DNA of 64,000 nt from a candidate division WOR-3 bacterium (lineage in GTDB: Bacteria > Hydrothermota > Tepidihabitantia > SM23-42 > JAOAFX01): the NCBI GenBank assembly GCA_039802005.1, contig JBDRVV010000013.1, positions 1,385 through 65,384 of the forward strand, given 5' to 3'. Both the position numbers and the translations under genes were made by a program. The first letter of the stretch is position 1. Each line of letters starts with the position of its first letter. This document shows, piece after piece, positions 53,597 to 64,000 of the stretch. The notes beneath the pieces were generated by a model, which searched no databases, had not been told where the DNA came from, and saw nothing but the letters and a program-made list of their open reading frames with translations.

Positions 53597-55471
53597 TTAA
53601 ACAGATTGAGAATCAGGAGGAAGGATGGTTGGCGGTGGTATTACAAGATTTATATCTTCCAATTTTACATTACCCTGTTTACTTACCCTCAGAATTATTG
53701 CCTGATACGGTTTGAATTGTAAATTTATTTCGTTTCGGTGCCCTGCATAATTTATTACAATTTTTATATTCATATCGGTTTCACAGAAAGATTGCCCGTA
53801 ACGCATTGGATAGGTTATTGACCTTGTCATTGGATGGCTGAAGAAAAGTATGAGTTCATCATCCACTTGCCGACACCAGAATTCAGGTATAAAAGATCCC
53901 TCAATCAATGGTGGTTTTTGTGCGGTCTTCTGTAATATCCCGCTCACACTTTTCTGAGAAAAGAGTTCTCTGAGAAGGTCGTCATATCTTTTATCTTTGT
54001 TAAAACCAGGCTGGCTCGGTTTTTTTATGATACATATCGGACAACCCATTTTTGCAAGTTTTATTAAATTTTGTAATGCCTTAATATCAAGCCAGTCAAG
54101 TTCAATATACAAAAAGTCAAAATCCATTCGTCCGATTTTCAGACGGCCATCAGTATATTCTGAATTTTCAAGGAAATGATTGGTCACCCATATTGGTCTG
54201 AATCCTCTTAAATCTTCAGGAAATTTTACATACTGCAATTCCCAGTGGTAACGGGCGCTCGGACGCTGTAGTTCCTCAGGCAGTTCATTCTGTATCCATG
54301 TATCTTCAAGGGGTAGGTAGACTGCAACCGGACCATAAGGCTTTCCTGAACGCATCAAATTACTCACCTTTTCAAGATATTGATTGAAATCAGGAAGTTC
54401 TTTTACAAAATTGCAATTCGGTCCGGTATGGACTGTAGCATAAAACCGATTTTTGCCACCAGGTGGGTTATAAGGCATCCCGTGCCAGACAATGAAATTT
54501 ATTCCGTTGGCAAAAAGCGCATCAGCAAGGAGTTTCAAATCCGCAATCTGCTCTTTTTCCTGATATGGACCGGGACCAGGATAAGGTAGCCAGCCATAGA
54601 TACAGGTAAATGCTTCAGCCGAGACTATATCTTTACCGCTCAATGCACCGGCTGAGGCAGGAATCTGGGAAAAGTGGGGGTCAAATAGCAATGACTCACT
54701 CTCGGGCACATCCACGACTGAATACGCTGCAAGTAGATCGGCCGGTGCACCATGACATTGGACACGGGAGACACAATCGAGTCTGTGGCATATTTCGGTA
54801 AATGGTAAGTAAAATTCATTGATAACCAATCGGGAAATGAGTTTGCGATAATCATAACGCACCGATTGTCTTTTGCTCAAATCCCTGATATACAATCTTA
54901 TATCGTAACCAAATTCATCCATAAACAAATTTTCAAATCCATCAGTCCATAACAATTCGGTATCCACTTCCCAGGAATCACAGAATAATGCCGAAGGGCT
55001 TATTTTTAATGCGGGCTCAAGTGCCCTGCCCATTTTTTCGGCGTACCTTTCAAGGGCATAGTGGTCAAGATGGTTCAAGATGAAACCCTGTTTTGAATGG
55101 GCAATCTCCCAGGATTTTTCCAGACGCTGGGGAGATAGTCCATAAAAATTCTTTGCCGCATCCTTTTCATCAATAAATGAACCACCAAAGGGCCATGAAG
55201 TTCCAAAGGTAAAATCGCAACCCAGACCAATATTTGTAGCATATTCTTTGGCAAAGGCGACGACCCTACTCCATTCTTCAGAGAGCCATTCTGGTCCGGG
55301 CTCAGAATTGGGCAGGGGATACATAAAAGCGATTTCCACACCACCGAAGTTATTTTTCTTACACCAGTCAAGTTGATATTTGACTACTTCTGGCTCAATC
55401 TTTCCAGAAAACCACCACCAGCGGACATAGGGTTTGGAATTTTTGTAAACTTCTTTTACCGCGCTCATCAA
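53597..55471 (-). CDS. Hypothetical glycoside-hydrolase-like protein (first gene of the sugar operon)
   Basis: ORF carrying a YVRWWWFSG segment. The hydrolase call rests on genomic context only. Confidence 0.4.
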   Translation of the reverse strand: MMSAVKEVYKNSKPYVRWWWFSGKIEPEVVKYQLDWCKKNNFGGVEIAFMYPLPNSEPGPEWLSEEWSRVVAFAKEYATNIGLGCDFTFGTSWPFGGSFIDEKDAAKNFYGLSPQRLEKSWEIAHSKQGFILNHLDHYALERYAEKMGRALEPALKISPSALFCDSWEVDTELLWTDGFENLFMDEFGYDIRLYIRDLSKRQSVRYDYRKLISRLVINEFYLPFTEICHRLDCVSRVQCHGAPADLLAAYSVVDVPESESLLFDPHFSQIPASAGALSGKDIVSAEAFTCIYGWLPYPGPGPYQEKEQIADLKLLADALFANGINFIVWHGMPYNPPGGKNRFYATVHTGPNCNFVKELPDFNQYLEKVSNLMRSGKPYGPVAVYLPLEDTWIQNELPEELQRPSARYHWELQYVKFPEDLRGFRPIWVTNHFLENSEYTDGRLKIGRMDFDFLYIELDWLDIKALQNLIKLAKMGCPICIIKKPSQPGFNKDKRYDDLLRELFSQKSVSGILQKTAQKPPLIEGSFIPEFWCRQVDDELILFFSHPMTRSITYPMRYGQSFCETDMNIKIVINYAGHRNEINLQFKPYQAIILRVSKQGNVKLEDINLVIPPPTILPPDSQSV

Positions 55472-55700
55472 AACTTATTATACACCTATTTATCCTGGTG
55501 TCAAGGAAAATACCTCTTACTTTTCCTCTCCTATATATTTTTATTATCTTCTAAACTGACTATTGATTTGTAATCAAAAATGATTACAATTGTTATCAAA
55601 AAAGGTGTCAAGATATGGATCCTGTAAAGAAGATTTTGGGTAATCTCAGTGTGTAAGATTTCTTAAATAATCAACATGGATAATCCAAAAATATTTTTGA

Positions 55701-56178
55701 TTGGAGACGATAATGACTTACGATGAATTTATTGCGGCTTATCTTGCCAAGGGCTTGATAAAGAAACAAAAAGCAGATTTAAAGGAAGTGGTGAAGGTTC
55801 TTAAAAGAGCCCGAATTGACTTGAAAATTGCAAAGGTTAATATCGAGATTGATGAAGGCATCGTCTATTCGGTTGCATATCTTGCTATGCTTAGAGCGGG
55901 GCGGGCATTGATGTTATTCAAAGGATTCCGTCCTGACGATGGCAATCAACATAAGACTGTAGTGGAGTTTACTGCATATTATTTTGGGTAATAAATTTAA
56001 GACGCTCGTTGCACATTTTGACCGAATGAGGCGCAAGCGTAATATATTTATGTACGATATTGAAGTATCCATATCTGGCTCAGAGGCGAATACAGTTTTT
56101 GAGACAGCGGTAGAATTCGTTAATCTGATAGAAAAAAAGATTAAAGAAGAACAACCACAAATAGAACTTGAATTTTAG
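55701..56178 (+). pseudogene. HEPN-domain protein gene split by a 1-nt frameshift at a T4G3 run (55984-55990)
   Basis: ORFs 55701..55991 and 55984..56178 are adjacent in frames +0/+1. Together they make ~155 aa with an HEPN-like helical hairpin and an R...RN...Y segment. Confidence 0.45.
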
Positions 56179-56615
56179 TTAAAATTATCAAATTGAGATA
56201 AACATCTCGCCCGTTTTGTCCGCAAGAAAGAGTGGCGGACTTTTCAGTTCAGGGCGGGACACCCTGCGGACTAACTACTTTTAAAATGGAGAATGCATAC
56301 ATCCCATTCACTTCAATAGTTTTTTTGATAAATCATTACGCCAATGGCATAATGACGGAATAGTGTATTCTGTAGAGACCGGTAAACCAAATTCCATTAT
56401 TCCAGAATTCTGGAATAATGGAATGGTAGAATAAGGCGTCGGGTGATAATAGATAATGATGCAGTTTTGAATTATCTCTTCAGAAAAGGATATTGGAATT
56501 CAGAATTGCACAATTGTGCAATTGTCAAATTGTCAAACGGCAATATCGTTGGGCAATTTTCACCGCCGGCAGGTTACTTTGGGGACTGGATAAATAAAGA
56601 AAGAAAATAAAAAAA

Positions 56616-56645
56616 ACGCCCACGCCTTCAGGCGTGGGCGTTAAA
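56616..56645. terminator. Bidirectional rho-independent terminator AACGCCCACGCCttcaGGCGTGGGCGTT, flanked by A8 and T-rich runs
   Basis: Perfect 12-bp stem and 4-nt loop between convergent genes. Confidence 0.75.
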
Positions 56646-56660
56646 TCAAGAAGTGACATG

Positions 56661-58067
56661 CTAAGATGGATTCAAAATCTTATCTTTATTGAATCCGATT
56701 TTAGATACAATGTTTTTAATCTTTCCTTTTTTCTCCAGTTCTTCTTCTGCAGACTTAACTAATAGCGTCATAGGCAATTCTGATAGTCTTCGCTCGGCAA
56801 ACTCTACCAGTGCCCTCAAAACAGCATTTTTTATCTCACCGCCAGTTAAATCAAATCTGTAACCCAGTTCTTCAAAATGCACATCTTTCGCAAGGGGAAT
56901 TTTAGCCGGTATCAATACTCTCCATATCTTACTCCGCTCTACGGGAGCTGGGTTTTCAAATTTTACTTTAAAGATTATTCTTCTCTCAAATGCCTCATCA
57001 ATTGCAAACTCGCGATTTGTGGTTAATATTACAACCCCTTCAAATCGTTCTAATTTTTGCATCAGAATGTTGGTCATAAAGTTATGCATCCGGTCAGTGG
57101 AAAATGTCTCCGTCATTCTTTGGCCAAATAAGGCATCGGCCTCATCAAATACAAGTACACAATTAAATATCTTGGCTTCTTCAAATACATAGTCAACCGC
57201 TTTTTCTGAATCACCCACCCAGCGGGAAAGAATACTGGAGTATTGCACGATGCCAATCTTTTTCTTTAGTTCATAAGCAATTGCCTCACAGGTTGCCGTC
57301 TTTCCTGTTCCTGGTGGTCCGTAAAAAAGCATGGACACACCTCTGCCGTATTTTATTGTTGAATCCAAGCCCCACTTCTTGGTTAACTCTTTTAATAAAT
57401 ATGCCTGTTTCAATGCCCTTTTTATTGCCTCCTTTTTTTCCAGAGGAAGGACGATTTTGTCAAAAGATAGTAGTGGTTTACGAATTGTTAGTAAGTTTGC
57501 TTCTAATTTTTTTTCTTCATTTTTTGGAACATTTTTCTTTTTTGCCACAACGAAGTATTCAAAAATTTTTTGTAAATATGTTGGTTCTAATTTCACATAA
57601 CAGTTTAAGGGAAATGCATACCTCTCATCCTGTTCAACAATTATAAGCTTTTTACTTTCAAGGTTTTGAAAAATTGTATATTTTTCCAGAAAATATTCTG
57701 GTTCAATGTCAAGTAAACTGAGAATATCATAAATGGTAGTTTCACAATATTTTTCACTAAACTGCCGGAAAAATAAAATTATCAGCACATATTTCTCCTC
57801 TTTTTTAAGAGAGAATTTTTGGGCAGTTTCCTCAAAGGGAATTTGCATATCAGATTTTTTGGCAATTTCAAAGATGCCTTCTAATTCTTCTTCTGCCCTT
57901 CTTATCTCAGAATTTATTTCGCAAACAGCAAGTTTGACTTCTTCATAATCTTCAGCACTCCAAGACAGATGATTTACTAAATCCATCTTTTTTCTTAACC
58001 TTTCGGTGCAGAGTCTGTAGTATTGTAATCCTGCTCTCAAAAATTCTACTTTTATATTTTTATCCAT
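56661..58067 (-). CDS. Classical AAA-family ATPase with a ~250-aa N-terminal helical domain
   Basis: Walker A GPPGTGKT, Walker B VLVFDEAD, second region of homology TTNR...RR. AGGAGG RBS before the internal ATG (MDKNIK). Confidence 0.75.
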   Translation of the reverse strand: MDKNIKVEFLRAGLQYYRLCTERLRKKMDLVNHLSWSAEDYEEVKLAVCEINSEIRRAEEELEGIFEIAKKSDMQIPFEETAQKFSLKKEEKYVLIILFFRQFSEKYCETTIYDILSLLDIEPEYFLEKYTIFQNLESKKLIIVEQDERYAFPLNCYVKLEPTYLQKIFEYFVVAKKKNVPKNEEKKLEANLLTIRKPLLSFDKIVLPLEKKEAIKRALKQAYLLKELTKKWGLDSTIKYGRGVSMLFYGPPGTGKTATCEAIAYELKKKIGIVQYSSILSRWVGDSEKAVDYVFEEAKIFNCVLVFDEADALFGQRMTETFSTDRMHNFMTNILMQKLERFEGVVILTTNREFAIDEAFERRIIFKVKFENPAPVERSKIWRVLIPAKIPLAKDVHFEELGYRFDLTGGEIKNAVLRALVEFAERRLSELPMTLLVKSAEEELEKKGKIKNIVSKIGFNKDKILNPS

Positions 58068-58089
58068 ATATTTTCCTCCTTTTTCAAAA

Positions 58090-59466
58090 TTATTCTGGAG
58101 ATTCAAGATATAAAATTTCACCAAAGGGTGGAGTATTGTTTTCTCCACGTTCGGTTATAATCCATAAAACTGGATAATCTGGTTCCTTACTTTTATCCGG
58201 ATAACAAGCACAACCATCCGTAAAGAATATCACACCATCTATCGGTTGTGATAAGGTGTTGAGGAAGTCAAAAAATCCTCGGAAATCAGTTCCGCCTCCA
58301 CCCCTGAGTACCTTATGTTCAACAACCTTGTCGTAGATATCCTCATATTCAGCGATTTCTATTGGTCCGTAGACACTTGTGTCAACACAAACCATTGTTA
58401 TTTTTGTTTTAGTCCCGCTGAGGGTTGATGCCTCGCTCAAGAACCTTTTAAGTTGGTCATCGTTTATCGATCCTGAGGTATCTATCGCAATCACAATATG
58501 TCTATTTATTCCAACAGTACCTGGCAGTATCAATTCTGCTTCGCGTTTATTTTTTTTGTAAAATGAATAATCATCCATACCTTTTCCTATTCGGTATGCG
58601 AACATATCCAAAACTTCTCTTAAATCAAGTTTTGGTTTAAGCAAGCCGTCTACATATCGCTCCATCTCTCCGGGTTTATTACCGCGTGAGATGGACTTCG
58701 CGAAAATAGCTGCGCGGATTATCATTGTTTTTACCATTTGCTCCATTTTCTTAATCTCTGTCGGATTTAAGCTCCGGGGATCGGGTAAACGGCCACAGAT
58801 CTTTGAAGAGTTTGGAATTTTCAAATGCTCATAGATTTTCTGAATTTCATCAGCCAGTTGACTCCAGATAAAATGGATAGTATCGCTGTGACCAGGGGAG
58901 GACCCTTTGTGGTCATCAATGACGGATTCTTTGCCAACATTAGGGGGAGACCCTTCATTACGAGATTCACCGAGCTTTTTTAATAAATCAATAATTGCTT
59001 TTTCCAACACAAGTTTGTCAACTAAATCTGGAGGCAACATTCGGATTATTTCGTCATATATCTTCTCCGCAGACTGCCCGGCAAATTTTTCATTATACAA
59101 AGTTGAGGGCGGTAACCTCAAGGATAATTTATCTTTGATAATCGAGTTAATAGCATAATCTATTGCCAACATCCATACACTCCAGATTTTATTTCTACCC
59201 CTTCGGATATGGTCGAGTTGATTATGCAGGACTTCGTGGATGAAAATAACCAGATAATAGTCTCGATAATCTTTATATTGGCTCTTTGAAAAATAGTAAT
59301 GTTTACCGTCGGTAATTGCTGGGCAGTTGAATGGTAATTTATCTTTGATGATTATATTGCCCTGGAGTGCCCAGTATCCAAAATATGGATATTCTTTAAT
59401 TAGTATTGACCTTGTTTTTATCAGGTAAGCATACATTTCCTTCTCATTTAAGTTTTTCTCTTCCAT
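58090..59466 (-). CDS. VWA-domain protein with an N-terminal putative HExxH metallopeptidase domain (DUF2201/COG3864-like)
   Basis: HEVLH motif near the N-terminus. MIDAS motif DTSGS in the C-terminal VWA domain. Confidence 0.7.
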   Translation of the reverse strand: MEEKNLNEKEMYAYLIKTRSILIKEYPYFGYWALQGNIIIKDKLPFNCPAITDGKHYYFSKSQYKDYRDYYLVIFIHEVLHNQLDHIRRGRNKIWSVWMLAIDYAINSIIKDKLSLRLPPSTLYNEKFAGQSAEKIYDEIIRMLPPDLVDKLVLEKAIIDLLKKLGESRNEGSPPNVGKESVIDDHKGSSPGHSDTIHFIWSQLADEIQKIYEHLKIPNSSKICGRLPDPRSLNPTEIKKMEQMVKTMIIRAAIFAKSISRGNKPGEMERYVDGLLKPKLDLREVLDMFAYRIGKGMDDYSFYKKNKREAELILPGTVGINRHIVIAIDTSGSINDDQLKRFLSEASTLSGTKTKITMVCVDTSVYGPIEIAEYEDIYDKVVEHKVLRGGGGTDFRGFFDFLNTLSQPIDGVIFFTDGCACYPDKSKEPDYPVLWIITERGENNTPPFGEILYLESPE

Positions 59467-59475
59467 TCTACCTCC

Positions 59476-60462
59476 TTAGAAAATAATGATTTTTCCAAAA
59501 GTGTTTCTCATTACCGGCCAATATTTAAGCTCCATAATTTTTTCCATCGGGAGCAAAGATTGCAAAATGTTGAATCCGAGGGTCGCCAATTCCATGTCTC
59601 CGTTTTCTTGCAGGGCGACAATCAATCTGCTCAATCCTGATGCCTTATCCGGAGAAGCTCCAAGGATTGAAATTAGAAAACACTTTTTATCAATTTCATG
59701 CGGTAGTGTTGGTTTTGCCGACTCATCAAACCAAATCTTCCAATCAATGTCACAGTTACAGAAGGTCATAAATTCAATACCGAATGAACTACCCAAACGA
59801 CCTGTCGCCAGATGTTCAAATACTGGATCATAACTGGGAATATCTTTAATTAGTATTGAAAGTTTCTCCCAGTTTCTTGGATTAGGAAAATTTTGATTTT
59901 TATTGTCTAATTCTACATAGATTGCATTGGGTCGGGCATAGAGATAGGCAATAATTCGTGGGTCAATTTTACGCGGAATTGCATATTCATTTATCCATTC
60001 CATTGCCGATGGTGTATTGAGTTCAACCACTGAAAAACGGGAGATTAGAGCAGAACGTATCTGGGAAATGTAACCTTCTTTTAAGGAAAGGTTCCCTGCC
60101 GCAACTATCATCCAGGAAGGTGGAAGTGTGTATTCACCAAGTTGTCTATCAAGAATAAGCTGGTATGCTGCATTCTGGACTGCGGGTGGTGCAAGATTTA
60201 TTTCGTCCAGCATTAATATACCACCGTTATCTTGATTAGGCAAAAATTCAGGTATTGCCCAGCGGGTGATATTTCTCTCTTTATCAATATAGGGAAAACC
60301 ACGCAGATCAGTTGGGTCAAGGAGGGATAGATCCTCTTTTGGATTGCCCGAAAGAATAATATAATTATTATCATCCATTGGCTTATAGATATAGGGGTAC
60401 TTTTGTAGTATTTCCTGCAGAAACTTATCGTGTAAGATTTTAATTACCAGCCTTTCCTGCAT
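59476..60462 (-). CDS. MoxR-like (AAA_5) ATPase homolog lacking a canonical Walker A P-loop
   Basis: Walker B/sensor region ILMLDEINLAPPAVQNAAYQLILDRQ...MIVAAGN is typical of the MoxR/AAA_5 family. The N-terminal 90 aa carry no GxxxxGK[ST]. Strong AAGGAGGT RBS at the annotated ATG. Confidence 0.6.
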   Translation of the reverse strand: MQERLVIKILHDKFLQEILQKYPYIYKPMDDNNYIILSGNPKEDLSLLDPTDLRGFPYIDKERNITRWAIPEFLPNQDNGGILMLDEINLAPPAVQNAAYQLILDRQLGEYTLPPSWMIVAAGNLSLKEGYISQIRSALISRFSVVELNTPSAMEWINEYAIPRKIDPRIIAYLYARPNAIYVELDNKNQNFPNPRNWEKLSILIKDIPSYDPVFEHLATGRLGSSFGIEFMTFCNCDIDWKIWFDESAKPTLPHEIDKKCFLISILGASPDKASGLSRLIVALQENGDMELATLGFNILQSLLPMEKIMELKYWPVMRNTFGKIIIF

Positions 60463-61528
60463 ATTTTTTACCTCCTTTTATGTCCACCGATGTCCAGGCA
60501 TATAATGGTTTTATTTTAATGCCTGAACACCGGTCATTAAAGTGGATAATGTAGCCGTGGATATGCTGTGGGAGAATGTCATTTATTGATTATTCTTTAT
60601 CATGGAAATCAATATGTTATGCAGCAATATTACATAATATATTGTATTTCCTTTAGGGTGGTCACAATGTTTATCTTTGTGAAGTAATTATTGCCTTCGT
60701 TAACTCCGCACAATTTATTGACTTTTTAAAGGCATTGATAATTTCCATTTGCTAATTTTTTGACCCTTTCCAAAATTCTGGATATGTTTTAATTTATCTG
60801 GCATAAAAAATTTTATTTCATCAGCTGGATATTGGCAGAAAGACTAAATTCCAGCTTTCTGCTTCTCGCTAACATAATTGAAATATATCAATTTGCCAAT
60901 GTTTCGAATATTTCCTACTTGGGATTGATATTGCATGCATAACATATTGATATTAAAAAACCTGTGCCGCAAGCGGTCAATATCACTAATCCTGGTCAAG
61001 CACCGGAAAGTGAGTTGTTAAAGACCAAATCCCCCAACAGGGGATACAAAACATAAGGACAGCTGCTACTGACGATGCAGTAAACGGCTGAGATATGGTA
61101 TCTGATAATAATTATAACCCGCAACGAAAGGGGTAGGAGAGGTAGAGCTCGACATTAATCTCTAAATCACTGTTACTACCCCCCCCATATATTTTTATGC
61201 ATTCAACCTTGAGAGCGTTTCTAACGGTAGTCTTGGTCTAAAAGCGGTCTCGGGCTTCAAACAGCAGACTTTTGGTCAGAAGACCCATCATATATTATAA
61301 TCAAAATTTTCAAATCGTCAAGGGGTAAAATGCACTTTCGGACTAACCCCATGCATTTTCCTCAGTATACAGTATAATAGTAGCTATATATTATATTAGT
61401 TACTACATCCCACCAAGTATGGGTCACAATTCTAAAGCCGATGGATGGAAAAAAACAGGCAGATTGTCTTCTCTATTGACTTTTGCGTATTATTAAATAA
61501 ACTTAAGTAATATAAAGGAGTACAATAT

Positions 61529-62854
61529 ATGGCAAATTACTGGTACGGTTTAGTGATAAGGAACGATGTGAAAAATTATTGTATCAATAACGGTATATTA
61601 GTAGATAGAAAGGATAGTAAAGATCTTTATAAAGATGTTAGACCGGGTGATACGATATTCATTATCAAAAAATGGTACAATAGTAATGACTGTGAGATTT
61701 ATGGTCCATTTATTGCAAAGTCTGGTTTAGAAGAAAAACCAATACAAATTAGTAAACTTACTTTTGACCTGCAAATCAAGATTGAACCATTGGGTGAAAT
61801 CAGTAAAATTGAAATACCAGATAATGCAGATATCACAAAGGCTATTTTTCAAACAAATAAAAGGCAAATTGATGAAAAAATTGGGAGAGATATAGAAGAG
61901 CAATTACAACAAATAAGATTAGAGGCTCAAGAGAAATTTGGGCATAAACCCAGTTTGAAGTTTGAGGATGTAATTGGATTTGAGTATTTGAAAAAGAGAA
62001 TGAAAAAATTAATTAAAGATTATGAGCGAAAAGAGGCGTATAACCTTCAAATCGCACGCGGTTTTTTTCTATTCGGACCACCTGGAACAGGCAAAACAAT
62101 ATTTATTGATGCGGTTGCTAATGAGTTGGGGTGCGATACTTATCCCGAAATTACCCCGGCGGTAATTGCTGGTTTCCCGGGCGAAGCTGAGAAAAATTTA
62201 GAAAATATGCTGGATAGTTATTTCAAGAAATTTGAAAACGAAGGTATTGGCGTTATGTTTATTGACGAATGTGAATCACTATTTCCAGCACGTGCACAAA
62301 ATTATTCTTCGGTTATGGCGAGAATTGTGCCAACCCTGTTAAGAAAAATAGATAGATTGTTAAAGTATTATCCTCATGAGAAGATATTTATCTTCGCAGT
62401 AAGCAATCATCCTGAAGATGTTGATCCGGCATTCCTTCGCCCTGGAAGGTTTGCAGAAATATATTATGTAGGTTTACCGAAAGAAGAAAATATAAGAAAA
62501 CTCTTTAATTTCTATATCAGACAAAAAATGAATAGTGATACTTTTGACCAGGAGATTTTTAAAGATGATTGTAAAGAATTGTTGAAATTTTTAGAAGACA
62601 AAAGAAAATCATTGTGCAACAGAGATAACATACATCCCGAATTCGGTAGATTTTCGCCTGCCGATATTGAAAAAATTATCAAAGATGCGGCATTAGAAGC
62701 CCATTATCAAAATAGAAAGATGACTCTTCAGGATTTAAAAGAGGAGATAGAAAAAACAATGCCATCAATTACCAACGAAACCCTTATTGCCATGGAAGAC
62801 TTCAAAAAATCGCATCCTAACTGGAAAGACGCCGATACTGGAAATCAAGACTGA
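61529..62854 (+). CDS. Fusion of an N-terminal PUA-like (EVE/ASCH-like) domain and a classical AAA ATPase
   Basis: N-terminus MANYWYGLV...RPGDTIFII...IYGPFIAKSG is EVE-like. Walker A GPPGTGKT, Walker B MFIDECE, Arg finger PAFLRPGRFAE. Confidence 0.65.
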   Translation: MANYWYGLVIRNDVKNYCINNGILVDRKDSKDLYKDVRPGDTIFIIKKWYNSNDCEIYGPFIAKSGLEEKPIQISKLTFDLQIKIEPLGEISKIEIPDNADITKAIFQTNKRQIDEKIGRDIEEQLQQIRLEAQEKFGHKPSLKFEDVIGFEYLKKRMKKLIKDYERKEAYNLQIARGFFLFGPPGTGKTIFIDAVANELGCDTYPEITPAVIAGFPGEAEKNLENMLDSYFKKFENEGIGVMFIDECESLFPARAQNYSSVMARIVPTLLRKIDRLLKYYPHEKIFIFAVSNHPEDVDPAFLRPGRFAEIYYVGLPKEENIRKLFNFYIRQKMNSDTFDQEIFKDDCKELLKFLEDKRKSLCNRDNIHPEFGRFSPADIEKIIKDAALEAHYQNRKMTLQDLKEEIEKTMPSITNETLIAMEDFKKSHPNWKDADTGNQD

Positions 62855-63537
62855 GAGGAAACCTTACTTGAAATAATCACTTCATACATCTCTTTCAATC
62901 TTCGTGCCTTGAAATTGGTTGGCTTTTCGTAATGGATGTTGCTATACGAGGGATGAAATAATACAATCACTTTGAAATTTCTATTATCAAAATGCATATT
63001 GAATCCCTCTTCGGGCATTGAGTTGGCAATAGTATATATATTTGCCTTCCTTAGATTCTGTGGGAGATAATCGTTTATCCTGCGCAGGGTTTTTAAGGCA
63101 TGCTTACCATAAACCACGATATATTCAAGTTTTGGTAAAAGCATTATTTCATTTTTAAGATAATCAACGCAATACCTGTCACAGGTATGATATTTAAAAT
63201 ATTTTCTTTCATAAGGAATACATTTAACCGCCATTGTCCAGTAGACAAATTTATCTTCAGTGGGATTAAAAGGTCTGCCAATCATACGACAAATATCTTT
63301 TGTTACTTTACCCTTTTGCGCTATAGCTTTCTTTGTCAAATGTTGGAAAATCTCATCATAACTCAAACTATGATAATTTGGTGGTATTTCTTCAGAAAGG
63401 AATAATACCGAAACACAATCAAGTGAACGCTCCAGACGCTTGAACAAAAAAGGCTTAAAATGCTTGAATCTCGGGCATTGATCATTCTGACAGTTCATCA
63501 CACTATTATGTAAATCATTATAAGTTTTTAAGTCCAT
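62845..63537 (-). CDS. Uracil-DNA glycosylase superfamily (family 4-like) protein with a divergent motif A
   Basis: VYWTMAVKCIP (cf. NVVKCRPP) and HPSYSN (HPSPL motif B). N-terminal Cys pairs are consistent with an Fe-S cluster. Motif A reads LSEEIPP instead of GEGPG. Confidence 0.45.
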   Translation of the reverse strand: MDLKTYNDLHNSVMNCQNDQCPRFKHFKPFLFKRLERSLDCVSVLFLSEEIPPNYHSLSYDEIFQHLTKKAIAQKGKVTKDICRMIGRPFNPTEDKFVYWTMAVKCIPYERKYFKYHTCDRYCVDYLKNEIMLLPKLEYIVVYGKHALKTLRRINDYLPQNLRKANIYTIANSMPEEGFNMHFDNRNFKVIVLFHPSYSNIHYEKPTNFKARRLKEMYEVIISSKVSSQS

Positions 63538-63637
63538 TATACCACCTTAAATCAAAAATATTACGCCACCCGCCTTCCGCCATCCGCTAACTTTTCTCTG
63601 GCGGTAAGCGGAAAGCGAATAGCGGAAAGCGGACTCG

Positions 63638-64000
63638 GTCGCAATCCTTTATTCATCAAGGTAAGTTTTCAGACGCACCCCCTCACCCTTCCCTCTCCCC
63701 CTTGGGGAGAGGATTAAGGTGAGGGGCATCAAGGTAAGTTTTCAGACGGGGAGATTGCTTGAATCCGTTTCCCCTCGTCGTCGAAGAGTCGCAATCCTTT
63801 ATTCATCAAGGTAAGTTTTCAGACTGCACCCCCTCACCCTTCCCTCTCCCCCTTGGGGAGAGGATTAAGGTGAGGGGCATCAAGGTAAGTTTTCAGACTA
63901 CAGAATACATCTAAAATTTTAAGACAAGAATTTGAAAGGGTCGCAATCCTTTATTCATCAAGGTAAGTTTTCAGACAAAAGAATACATTGCCCAGTGGGG
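63638..64000. CRISPR. CRISPR-like array running off the window end: 37-bp repeat GTCGCAATCCTTTATTCATCAAGGTAAGTTTTCAGAC x3, 40/41-bp unique spacers, plus two copies of a 53-bp GC-rich palindrome each followed by the 3' 20 nt of the repeat
   Basis: Repeats at 63638-63674, 63788-63824, 63940-63976. Half-repeats at 63728-63747 and 63879-63898. Palindromes at 63675-63727 and 63825-63878. Confidence 0.5.

Follow-up and report, generated by a model that had tools for sequence, protein, structure and literature searches.

The 64,000-nucleotide stretch analysed here (the window; contig JBDRVV010000013.1, positions 1,385 to 65,384) comes from a candidate division WOR-3 bacterium and contains, close to its end, two convergent genes whose homologs recur side by side at divergent loci. 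One encodes an AAA ATPase with a DCD-like (Dev_Cell_Death) N-terminal domain, referred to below as DCD-AAA, and the other a protein with the fold of the uracil-DNA glycosylase (UDG) superfamily. The features of the pair, found by an open reading frame (ORF) scan, domain profiles, AlphaFold2 (AF2) models and HMMER alignment, are as follows.

61529-62854, plus strand: DCD(PUA-like)-AAA ATPase gene, 441 aa (ORF scan; PF00004, E 2e-23)
61529-61858, plus strand: predicted N-terminal DCD-like domain, a PUA-like β-barrel, approximately residues 1-110 (PF10539, AF2, Foldseek)
62066-62473, plus strand: classic AAA core, residues 180-315 (PF00004, 83.7 bits)
62075-62098, plus strand: Walker A GPPGTGKT, residue 183, invariant in 16 homologs
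62252-62269, plus strand: Walker B VMFIDE, residue 242, invariant in 16 homologs
62845-62854: 10-bp overlap of the convergent 3' ends (ORF scan)
62845-63537, minus strand: gene for a UDG-fold, probably iron-sulfur (Fe-S), glycosylase-like protein, 230 aa (PF03167, 36.7 bits)
62947-62955, minus strand: motif B, H195-P-S197, with His in 21/22 clade members
63214-63243, minus strand: YWTMAVKCIP, residues 99-108, aligning with the family-4 'TNvvKCrP' strand (HMMER alignment to 4zbx)
63379-63396, minus strand: motif A, S48-E-E-I-P-P53 (clade consensus S-Q-[E/D]-P-[G/S/A])
63475-63492, minus strand: N-terminal C16-x4-C21 pair (column counts)

Shine-Dalgarno-like sequences are located 5' of both start codons, AAGGAG for the DCD-AAA gene at 61529 and AAGGTGG for the UDG-like gene at 63537, and each of the two proteins is 100% identical to a deposited protein from a candidate division WOR-3 metagenome-assembled genome (MAG). 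An original prediction, made from the letters of this DNA, had described two genes overlapping by 10 bp at their 3' ends, and the ORF scan agrees: the genes are convergent and share 62845-62854.

When the whole 441-aa protein was used as the query against Pfam, NCBIfam, PHROGs and PADLOC, no match to the N-terminal domain was obtained at E<0.1. Detection required a query of the domain alone (residues 1-129) and a route via relatives. Residues 1-129 gave Dev_Cell_Death (PF10539) as the sole Pfam match, at a sub-threshold E of 0.099 (12.9 bits against a gathering threshold of 27.8). The same family was matched by relatives at E 5.5e-5 (P0005), 3e-4 (P0008) and 9e-4 (the corresponding domain of a fusion protein at locus L002), with 19.5-23.4 bits, while a sister clade of ~425-aa DCD-AAA proteins (P0061-type) reached E 3.8e-18 and 65.9 bits. 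A hidden Markov model built from the WOR-3 subgroup only, which contains no recognised DCD member, matched 94 of 94 stand-alone PF10539 proteins (best 52 bits); with a wider profile of the domain, all 94 database matches likewise carry PF10539. The AF2 model of the domain, calculated from a 55-sequence alignment, has a predicted local distance difference test score (pLDDT) of 85 and a predicted template modelling score (pTM) of 0.77. A Foldseek comparison of this model with the PDB identified the EVE protein PH1033 as the best match (template modelling score, TM, 0.64), together with many YTH m6A-reader domains and MJECL36, and PH1033 was also the top PDB match by sequence profile. No match to EVE (PF01878) or ASCH was found in the window protein at E<=10 in Pfam, and a weak EVE match occurs in one relative only (P0005, 18.4 bits against a cutoff of 23). 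As judged by profiles and model, the N-terminal domain is of PUA-like fold and belongs to the DCD family rather than to EVE or ASCH. The original prediction of a PUA-like (EVE/ASCH) domain was thus correct as to the fold, given the matches to PH1033 and YTH domains, and mistaken as to the family, which the profiles indicate to be DCD. It had also regarded a PUA-like domain as an unusual partner for an AAA ATPase, for which there is precedent in McrB-type fusions on AAA+ motors (PMC7641849). The DCD domain has been placed in the PUA-like superfamily beside EVE by Bell et al. (PMC7641849); prokaryotic examples are rare and are linked to type I restriction, PD-(D/E)xK nucleases, McrB-like proteins, methyltransferases and restriction of modified DNA, the binding of modified bases itself being a prediction only. 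The text of that study makes no mention of a classic AAA or UDG partner for DCD.

The ATPase core is apparently competent, and its motifs are intact. In addition to the Walker motifs, a pore-loop-like GFPG at residue 215 and RPGR at 304 (the second region of homology arginines) are invariant across the 16 homologs. The nearest NCBIfam models are those of the CDC48 D2 domain and CdvC/Vps4-type ATPases, all far under their curated cutoffs, and AAA_5 (the McrB type) gave only E 0.07. Matches of the ATPase in PADLOC-DB v2.0.0 were limited to generic IetA and TRIP13 AAA models.

The UDG-like protein exceeds the gathering threshold of the UDG superfamily (36.7 against 24.3 bits; E 5.6e-9, residues 97-212), and its AF2 model has a pLDDT of 93.5 and a pTM of 0.92. 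The top 30 Foldseek matches of this model are family 4/5 UDGs and UdgX, with TM-scores of 0.5-0.7 at 12-16% identity; the S. tokodaii family 4 UDG is the best (E 3.6e-8, TM 0.61/0.71), and the PDB structures matched in fold are 4zbx, 1ui0, 2d3y and 6ioa. The cutoffs of the family-4 UDG models were not reached (TIGR00758, 21.3 against 125.3 bits; NF040953, 21.1 against 250). A word-indexed search returned a single UDG-like relative and an exhaustive HMMER search over 1.84 billion cluster representatives returned 28. The profile of the resulting clade matched the S. tokodaii family 4 UDG (4zbx) at E 2e-7 and T. thermophilus UDGA/UDGB weakly among solved structures. PADLOC contained no match for the protein or its relatives, and a scan of viral contigs for the UDG pattern gave none. 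Profiles and model together indicate that the protein is a member of a rare UDG-fold clade closest to the Fe-S families 4/5 and is not a housekeeping family 4 enzyme, in keeping with the original prediction of a UDG homolog with a divergent motif A.

Column counts in a 22-sequence alignment of the clade revealed four conserved cysteines, C16 (18/18), C21 (18/18), C106 (22/22) and C123 (21/22), in the same order as the family-4 [4Fe-4S] ligands. They are putative metal ligands, and the protein is probably an Fe-S protein. The clade has an invariant strand, YW-T-H-x-L-K-C-x-P. At position 102, where the HMMER alignment places the Asn of the 'TN' motif in 4zbx, 20 of the 22 clade members have His and the window protein has Met; in family 4, this Asn contacts uracil. 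Motif A of family 4 reads GE(A/G)PG, a form from which the window motif differs, and motif A of the UDG-like protein contains a conserved acidic residue. The VKC..P, HPS and SEEIPP motifs quoted in the original prediction are present at residues 104-108, 195-197 and 48-53, respectively. The divergence of motif A is real insofar as the motif is non-canonical, but it is not peculiar to the window protein, the whole clade carrying S-Q-[E/D]-P. The closest relative, P0123 (43% identity), shares both S-E-E-I (Pro51->Ile) and Met102 with the window protein, and by these residues the two are a sub-variant of an already non-canonical clade. Among species genomes, the clade occurs mainly in Methanomassiliicoccales (L017-L044, >25 MAGs, sometimes with two copies), and this may be the housekeeping lineage from which the defence-linked copies in bacteria came. 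The genes in these archaea are often found near a peptidase-U32-like gene and a gene for a DedA-like membrane protein.

Six mutually divergent lineages, with 36-42% identity to the window protein, make up the DCD-AAA subfamily nearest to it. In four of the six, a UDG-superfamily gene is immediately adjacent (the window with L001, L002-L004, L007/L008 and L014), and the arrangements are as follows.

Window and L001: UDG-like gene convergent with the DCD-AAA gene
L002-L004: gene for a 667-aa protein with UDG, DCD-like and HD-CE domains directly upstream of DCD-AAA, plus a second UDG gene and a gene for a WG-repeat protein
L007/L008: UDG gene directly upstream of DCD-AAA
L014: UDG gene directly upstream of DCD-AAA, followed by a gene for a 452-aa protein ending in a DCD-like domain and then by another for a DCD-like protein
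L005/L006 and L013: gene for a 312-323-aa protein occupying the UDG position beside DCD-AAA

In the 667-aa protein (L002:7919-9922, also found in L003 and L004), the linkage takes the form of a fusion, with a UDG-like region at residues 19-213, a DCD-like domain at 247-354 (E 1e-25 to our N-domain profile) and an HD-CE domain at 425-576 (PF24391, E 4e-22), the last of which represents a conflict-effector family. The partner UDGs fall into at least two sub-clades, which hhalign relates to the window clade (98.8%, E 6e-17). Since UDGs of different sub-clades are located beside DCD-AAA, the ATPase has been paired repeatedly with different UDG-fold proteins. Given that a genome has one or two UDG genes, immediate adjacency in four of six independent lineages is very unlikely to have arisen by chance, although this is a rough inference and not a computed statistic. 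A metagenome locus scan with the DCD-AAA alignment provided a control set of 79 ordinary AAA loci, along with one DCD-AAA locus, and none of the 79 classic-AAA loci contains an ORF matching either UDG-clade profile within 7 kb. The DCD-AAA and UDG-like genes are functionally linked. Conservation of the gene neighbourhood, which the original prediction had suggested examining, is therefore positive, with a UDG gene adjacent in 4/6 lineages.

Several other proteins accompany the module. The last DCD-like protein of L014 has a truncated C-terminus similar to the beginning of the AAA region. The 312-323-aa family (L005:9034-9972, L013:60-1031) has a conserved SPYxxGYGNITSPxWFxGEAEGG motif, and its domain is fused to a DCD-like domain in L014 (L014:2319-3677). 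The FLGEAEGG motif prompted us to consider this partner as a hidden UDG; hhalign gave no relation to UDG. Searches of Pfam, NCBIfam, PADLOC and PDB sequences with the protein returned nothing, and it may be an alternative effector. Two separate loci (L002:6877-7674, L012:817-1533) have a gene for a WG-repeat protein (PF14903) adjacent to one for a UDG-like protein. The L002 protein has an N-terminal ankyrin-like region, and one of the WG-repeat loci adjoins the P0123 UDG.

Comparison with a related strain (L002) by blastn revealed the gene pair to lie within a strain-variable cassette.

61383-63637: strain-variable cassette (blastn against strain L002)

Window positions 55989-61382 are 95-97% identical to L002, and the CRISPR side is also common to both strains. 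The interval between them holds two genes in the window and a homologous cassette of four genes in L002, whose DCD-AAA is only ~40% identical to that of the window. Near-identical flanks around a swapped cassette are the behaviour of a defence hotspot, and the locus behaves like one. The cassette is located between a CRISPR array and other conflict-type genes, and the P0061-type DCD-AAA sister clade adjoins MNT/HEPN toxin-antitoxin pairs and RadC.

We compared the module with known systems. In its logic it is akin to McrBC, to the Brig glycosylases and to PUA-sensor systems and, by membership tests, belongs to none of them; a search of PADLOC and the literature found no DCD-AAA/UDG system described. 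In common with McrBC systems carrying EVE/YTH/DCD-McrB fusions (PMC7641849, PMC11090510), it places an N-terminal PUA-like reader on an AAA+ NTPase with an enzyme partner next door, and both are found in defence-island contexts, the McrBC partner being DNA-damaging and that of the window UDG-fold. In contrast to the AAA_5 GTPase McrB, however, the window NTPase is a CDC48/Vps4-like AAA (PF00004), and its partner is a UDG-fold protein rather than the McrC nuclease, no McrC-like ORF having been found in the ORF scan. Brig1 is a UDG-fold defence glycosylase with demonstrated base excision (PMC11078745), and the UDG-like Brig2 protects against phages with modified thymidines (10.1101/2025.10.29.685425). 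The window protein shares with both the UDG fold, a defence context and, as a prediction, the excision of modified bases from invading DNA. The S. tokodaii family 4 UDG, reported as the best structural match of Brig1 (PMC11078745), is also the top match of the window protein. A sequence relation to Brig1 is undetectable (hhalign of the clade profile against the Brig1 sequence from the supplement of that paper, probability 0.2%), and motif A is of the GLNPG type in Brig1, whereas the window clade has S-Q-[E/D]-P and four conserved cysteines. Furthermore, the Brigs act as single genes, whereas the window protein has a DCD reader and AAA ATPase for a partner, with fusion occurring elsewhere.

In the PUA-Calcineurin-CE-HAD system, a PUA sensor binds a modified nucleotide (m6-dAMP) and triggers a conflict-effector enzyme (PUA-Cal-HAD; PMC12871103). 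The likeness lies in the coupling of a PUA-like sensor to conflict effectors, the L002 variant having HD-CE fused to DCD; the PUA family is a different one, however, and the window has neither Calcineurin-CE nor HAD, its cassette coding for an AAA ATPase and a UDG-fold protein. With the IetAS system, the likeness is between IetA models and the AAA core (PADLOC, E 3e-22; NCBIfam NF042959, 59 bits), but 59 bits falls well short of the equivalog cutoff of 510, the cassette contains no IetS protease, and IetA has no DCD N-terminal domain. The family 4/5 UDGs and UdgX share with the window protein the fold, the KC...P strand, HPS and the order of the four cysteines as family-4 ligands, and differ from it in overall sequence, in motif A (S-E-E-I) and in the residue at the 4zbx Asn position.

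We propose, with a probability of about one half, that the gene pair would constitute a small, horizontally swapped, modification-sensing module directed against mobile elements (anti-phage). This proposal draws on the domain identities, the conserved linkage, the UDG-DCD-HD fusion and the hotspot behaviour, each shown by the analysis, as well as on the precedents above. As to the ligand, the DCD domain may recognise a non-canonical base, whether within invading DNA or in released form, as a base or nucleotide. The substrate of the UDG-fold enzyme would be a modified base other than uracil, excised to leave replication-blocking abasic sites, as with Brig1/Brig2. The DCD-tethered AAA ring might spend ATP on loading the glycosylase, on activating or recycling it, or else on remodelling a protein at that site, and the predicted phenotype would be defence.

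A number of observations weigh against this proposal. The window N-terminal domain is below the Pfam gathering threshold for DCD (12.9 against 27.8 bits), and the WOR-3 subgroup lacks a Trp that is nearly invariant in DCD, so that its ligand pocket may differ. The linkage is based on ~14 loci, nearly all from WOR-3-type metagenomes, and two lineages pair the ATPase with the unrelated 312-aa protein instead of a UDG. The UDG-like protein departs from its own clade at two conserved positions, Pro51->Ile and His102->Met, and might bind DNA without acting as an enzyme. The Methanomassiliicoccales members have no DCD neighbour and partly conserved synteny, which indicates that the clade may be a repair enzyme there. 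In the 87%-identical strain L001, the UDG ortholog (L001:1795-2600) is broken by three 1-nt indels and a 115-bp hairpin-element insertion, whilst the DCD-AAA partner is intact (82% aa identity); either the glycosylase may be dispensable or the MAG assembly may be faulty. Finally, classic AAA rings normally thread proteins, which makes a McrB-like DNA-motor role unlikely. With respect to the original prediction of a system that recognises modified DNA, the domain calls and the predicted linkage of the two genes have held, while the EVE/ASCH family and the links to the MoxR/VWA operon and the CRISPR array have not.

Among the other explanations, the glycosylase might act as an infection sensor, with DCD binding the freed base or lesion and switching on the AAA or HD-CE effectors, leading to abortive infection through shutdown of the cell or of its nucleotide pools. 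We consider this unlikely. The DCD domain does sit on the presumed effectors (AAA and HD-CE) and on the UDG fusion, HD-CE (PF24391) is a conflict-effector family, and the GFPG pore-loop motif of a classic AAA suggests a protein-directed effector. A PUA-like sensor activated by free m6-dAMP has moreover been demonstrated (PMC12871103). The window cassette, however, has no obvious toxic effector except the ATPase, and the idea is speculative, with one precedent, the binding of free bases by DCD being supposition. Were it true, an excised nucleobase would be an immune signal, and the 312-aa partner might be a second kind of signal generator. Ordinary base-excision repair, with an unusual housekeeping glycosylase and the AAA ATPase as an unrelated neighbour, is distinctly unlikely. 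It would fit a UDG clade that is common and syntenic in Methanomassiliicoccales without a DCD partner, and the match of fold and Cys pattern to repair families 4 and 5, but it leaves unexplained the adjacency in 4/6 divergent lineages with differing UDG sub-clades, the UDG-DCD-HD fusion, the strain variability of the cassette between near-identical flanks, and the His or Met that the clade and the window protein have in place of the 4zbx Asn.

That a PUA-targeted AAA unfoldase extracts a trapped UDG-like protein from abasic sites, recycling glycosylase or DNA-protein crosslinks in repair and genome maintenance, appears quite improbable. UdgX structures are among the structural matches and the ATPase is of the classic protein-threading AAA type, yet UdgX ranks below the family 4/5 UDGs, no UdgX-specific motif was identified in the protein, and the hotspot swapping, HD-CE fusion and toxin-antitoxin neighbourhoods would remain unaccounted for. 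The position of the cassette directly at the trailer end of the array, with the UDG gene co-directional with the array and the cas genes, could suggest an accessory module of the adjacent type III CRISPR-Cas system. This we regard as highly improbable and have rejected, since the array is present only at this locus type, the modules of L005, L007, L013 and L014 having no CRISPR array nearby; domain-library searches of both proteins also found no CARF, SAVED or other cyclic-oligoadenylate-sensing domain. The chance is similarly slight that the pair modifies self-DNA by base exchange, the UDG-fold enzyme removing a base for replacement and DCD reading the mark. A reader and a base-removing enzyme could in principle write and read such a mark, but none of the cassettes contains a transferase, synthase or modification-biosynthesis gene.

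It is only recently that immunity based on glycosylases (Brig1, Brig2, the Dag enzymes) has been recognised, and the cases found are single proteins. If the proposed modification-sensing module is real, the cassette would represent multi-component glycosylase immunity, with a glycosylase fold coupled both to a reader of modified bases and to a machine driven by ATP, and it would join the logic of type IV restriction and PUA-sensor systems with base excision. The cassette offers a concrete bacterial context for the DCD domain, and the UDG clade, with its S-Q-[E/D]-P motif, four cysteines and His for Asn, may supply new base specificities with which modified DNA could be detected or edited. The cassette family is rare and so far confined to uncultured WOR-3-type bacteria.

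On the other side of the cassette boundary lies a conserved operon.

56661-60462, minus strand: flanking operon, a conserved flank
56661-58148, minus strand: IetA-like AAA gene, 495 aa
58090-59466, minus strand: DUF2201 metallopeptidase-VWA gene
59476-60462, minus strand: MoxR remnant

The operon proteins are 92-99% identical to those of L002 while the adjacent cassette is swapped, and the IetA-like/VWA/MoxR operon is absent from L007 and L014. The MoxR gene is a deletion chimera: 334 bp are missing in comparison with L002 (L002:3574-4894), with the junction at 60330/60331, such that a 98-aa upstream ORF contributes its first ~44 codons, which run on into MoxR at residue ~50. This removes Walker A, which reads GHPGIGKS in L002, and the window MoxR ATPase is probably inactive in this strain. 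The original prediction had drawn this MoxR/VWA operon into a system recognising modified DNA, a role we rejected on the grounds that it is a conserved flank beside a swapped cassette, is missing from L007/L014 and contains a MoxR without Walker A. In the unrelated locus L005, a gene for a 42%-identical homolog of the IetA-like AAA (L005:7505-8947) immediately precedes the 312-aa/DCD-AAA module, and the IetA-like AAA may be linked to the module independently of MoxR/VWA.

The ~1 kb between operon and ATPase gene (60463-61528) is devoid of ORFs >=60 aa, tRNAs and Rfam matches. Up to the cassette boundary at 61382 it shares 96% identity with L002 4763-5799; it has a sigma-70-like site (11/12) at 61321-61294 on the minus strand, and could be a regulatory region or a hotspot recombination target.

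The remaining feature, at the opposite end of the cassette, provides the CRISPR context.

63634-64000, minus strand: type III CRISPR array, trailer end (repeat of 37 nt; a GC-rich hairpin element interrupts it)

The array starts ~100 bp beyond the UDG-like start codon, the cassette lies at its cas-distal end, and the minus-strand form of the repeat ends ATTGCGAC. In L001, six exact copies of the 37-nt repeat precede cas2, cas1, a Csm6-like gene, a RAMP gene and csm4, which establishes the array as a genuine type III CRISPR; the CRISPR-like array noted in the original prediction is thus borne out as such. Its connection to the gene pair is not, as the adjacency is specific to this locus type and is seen at none of the other module loci. 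Scanning 60300-64000 and 55000-64000 with Rfam and for tRNAs yielded nothing beyond spurious sub-threshold matches, located on the hairpin. This hairpin is imperfect, GC-rich and ~52 nt long, with the core CCTCTCCCCCTTGGGGAGAGG, and is found at 63675-63726 and 63826-63877, its only two occurrences in the window (chance expectation 0). At the trailer end, every second CRISPR repeat has this hairpin instead of its first half. A related copy is present in the 3' end of the L001 UDG ortholog, the L001 sites being at ~1810-1915 and 2789-2883, and the hairpin looks like a miniature mobile hairpin element.

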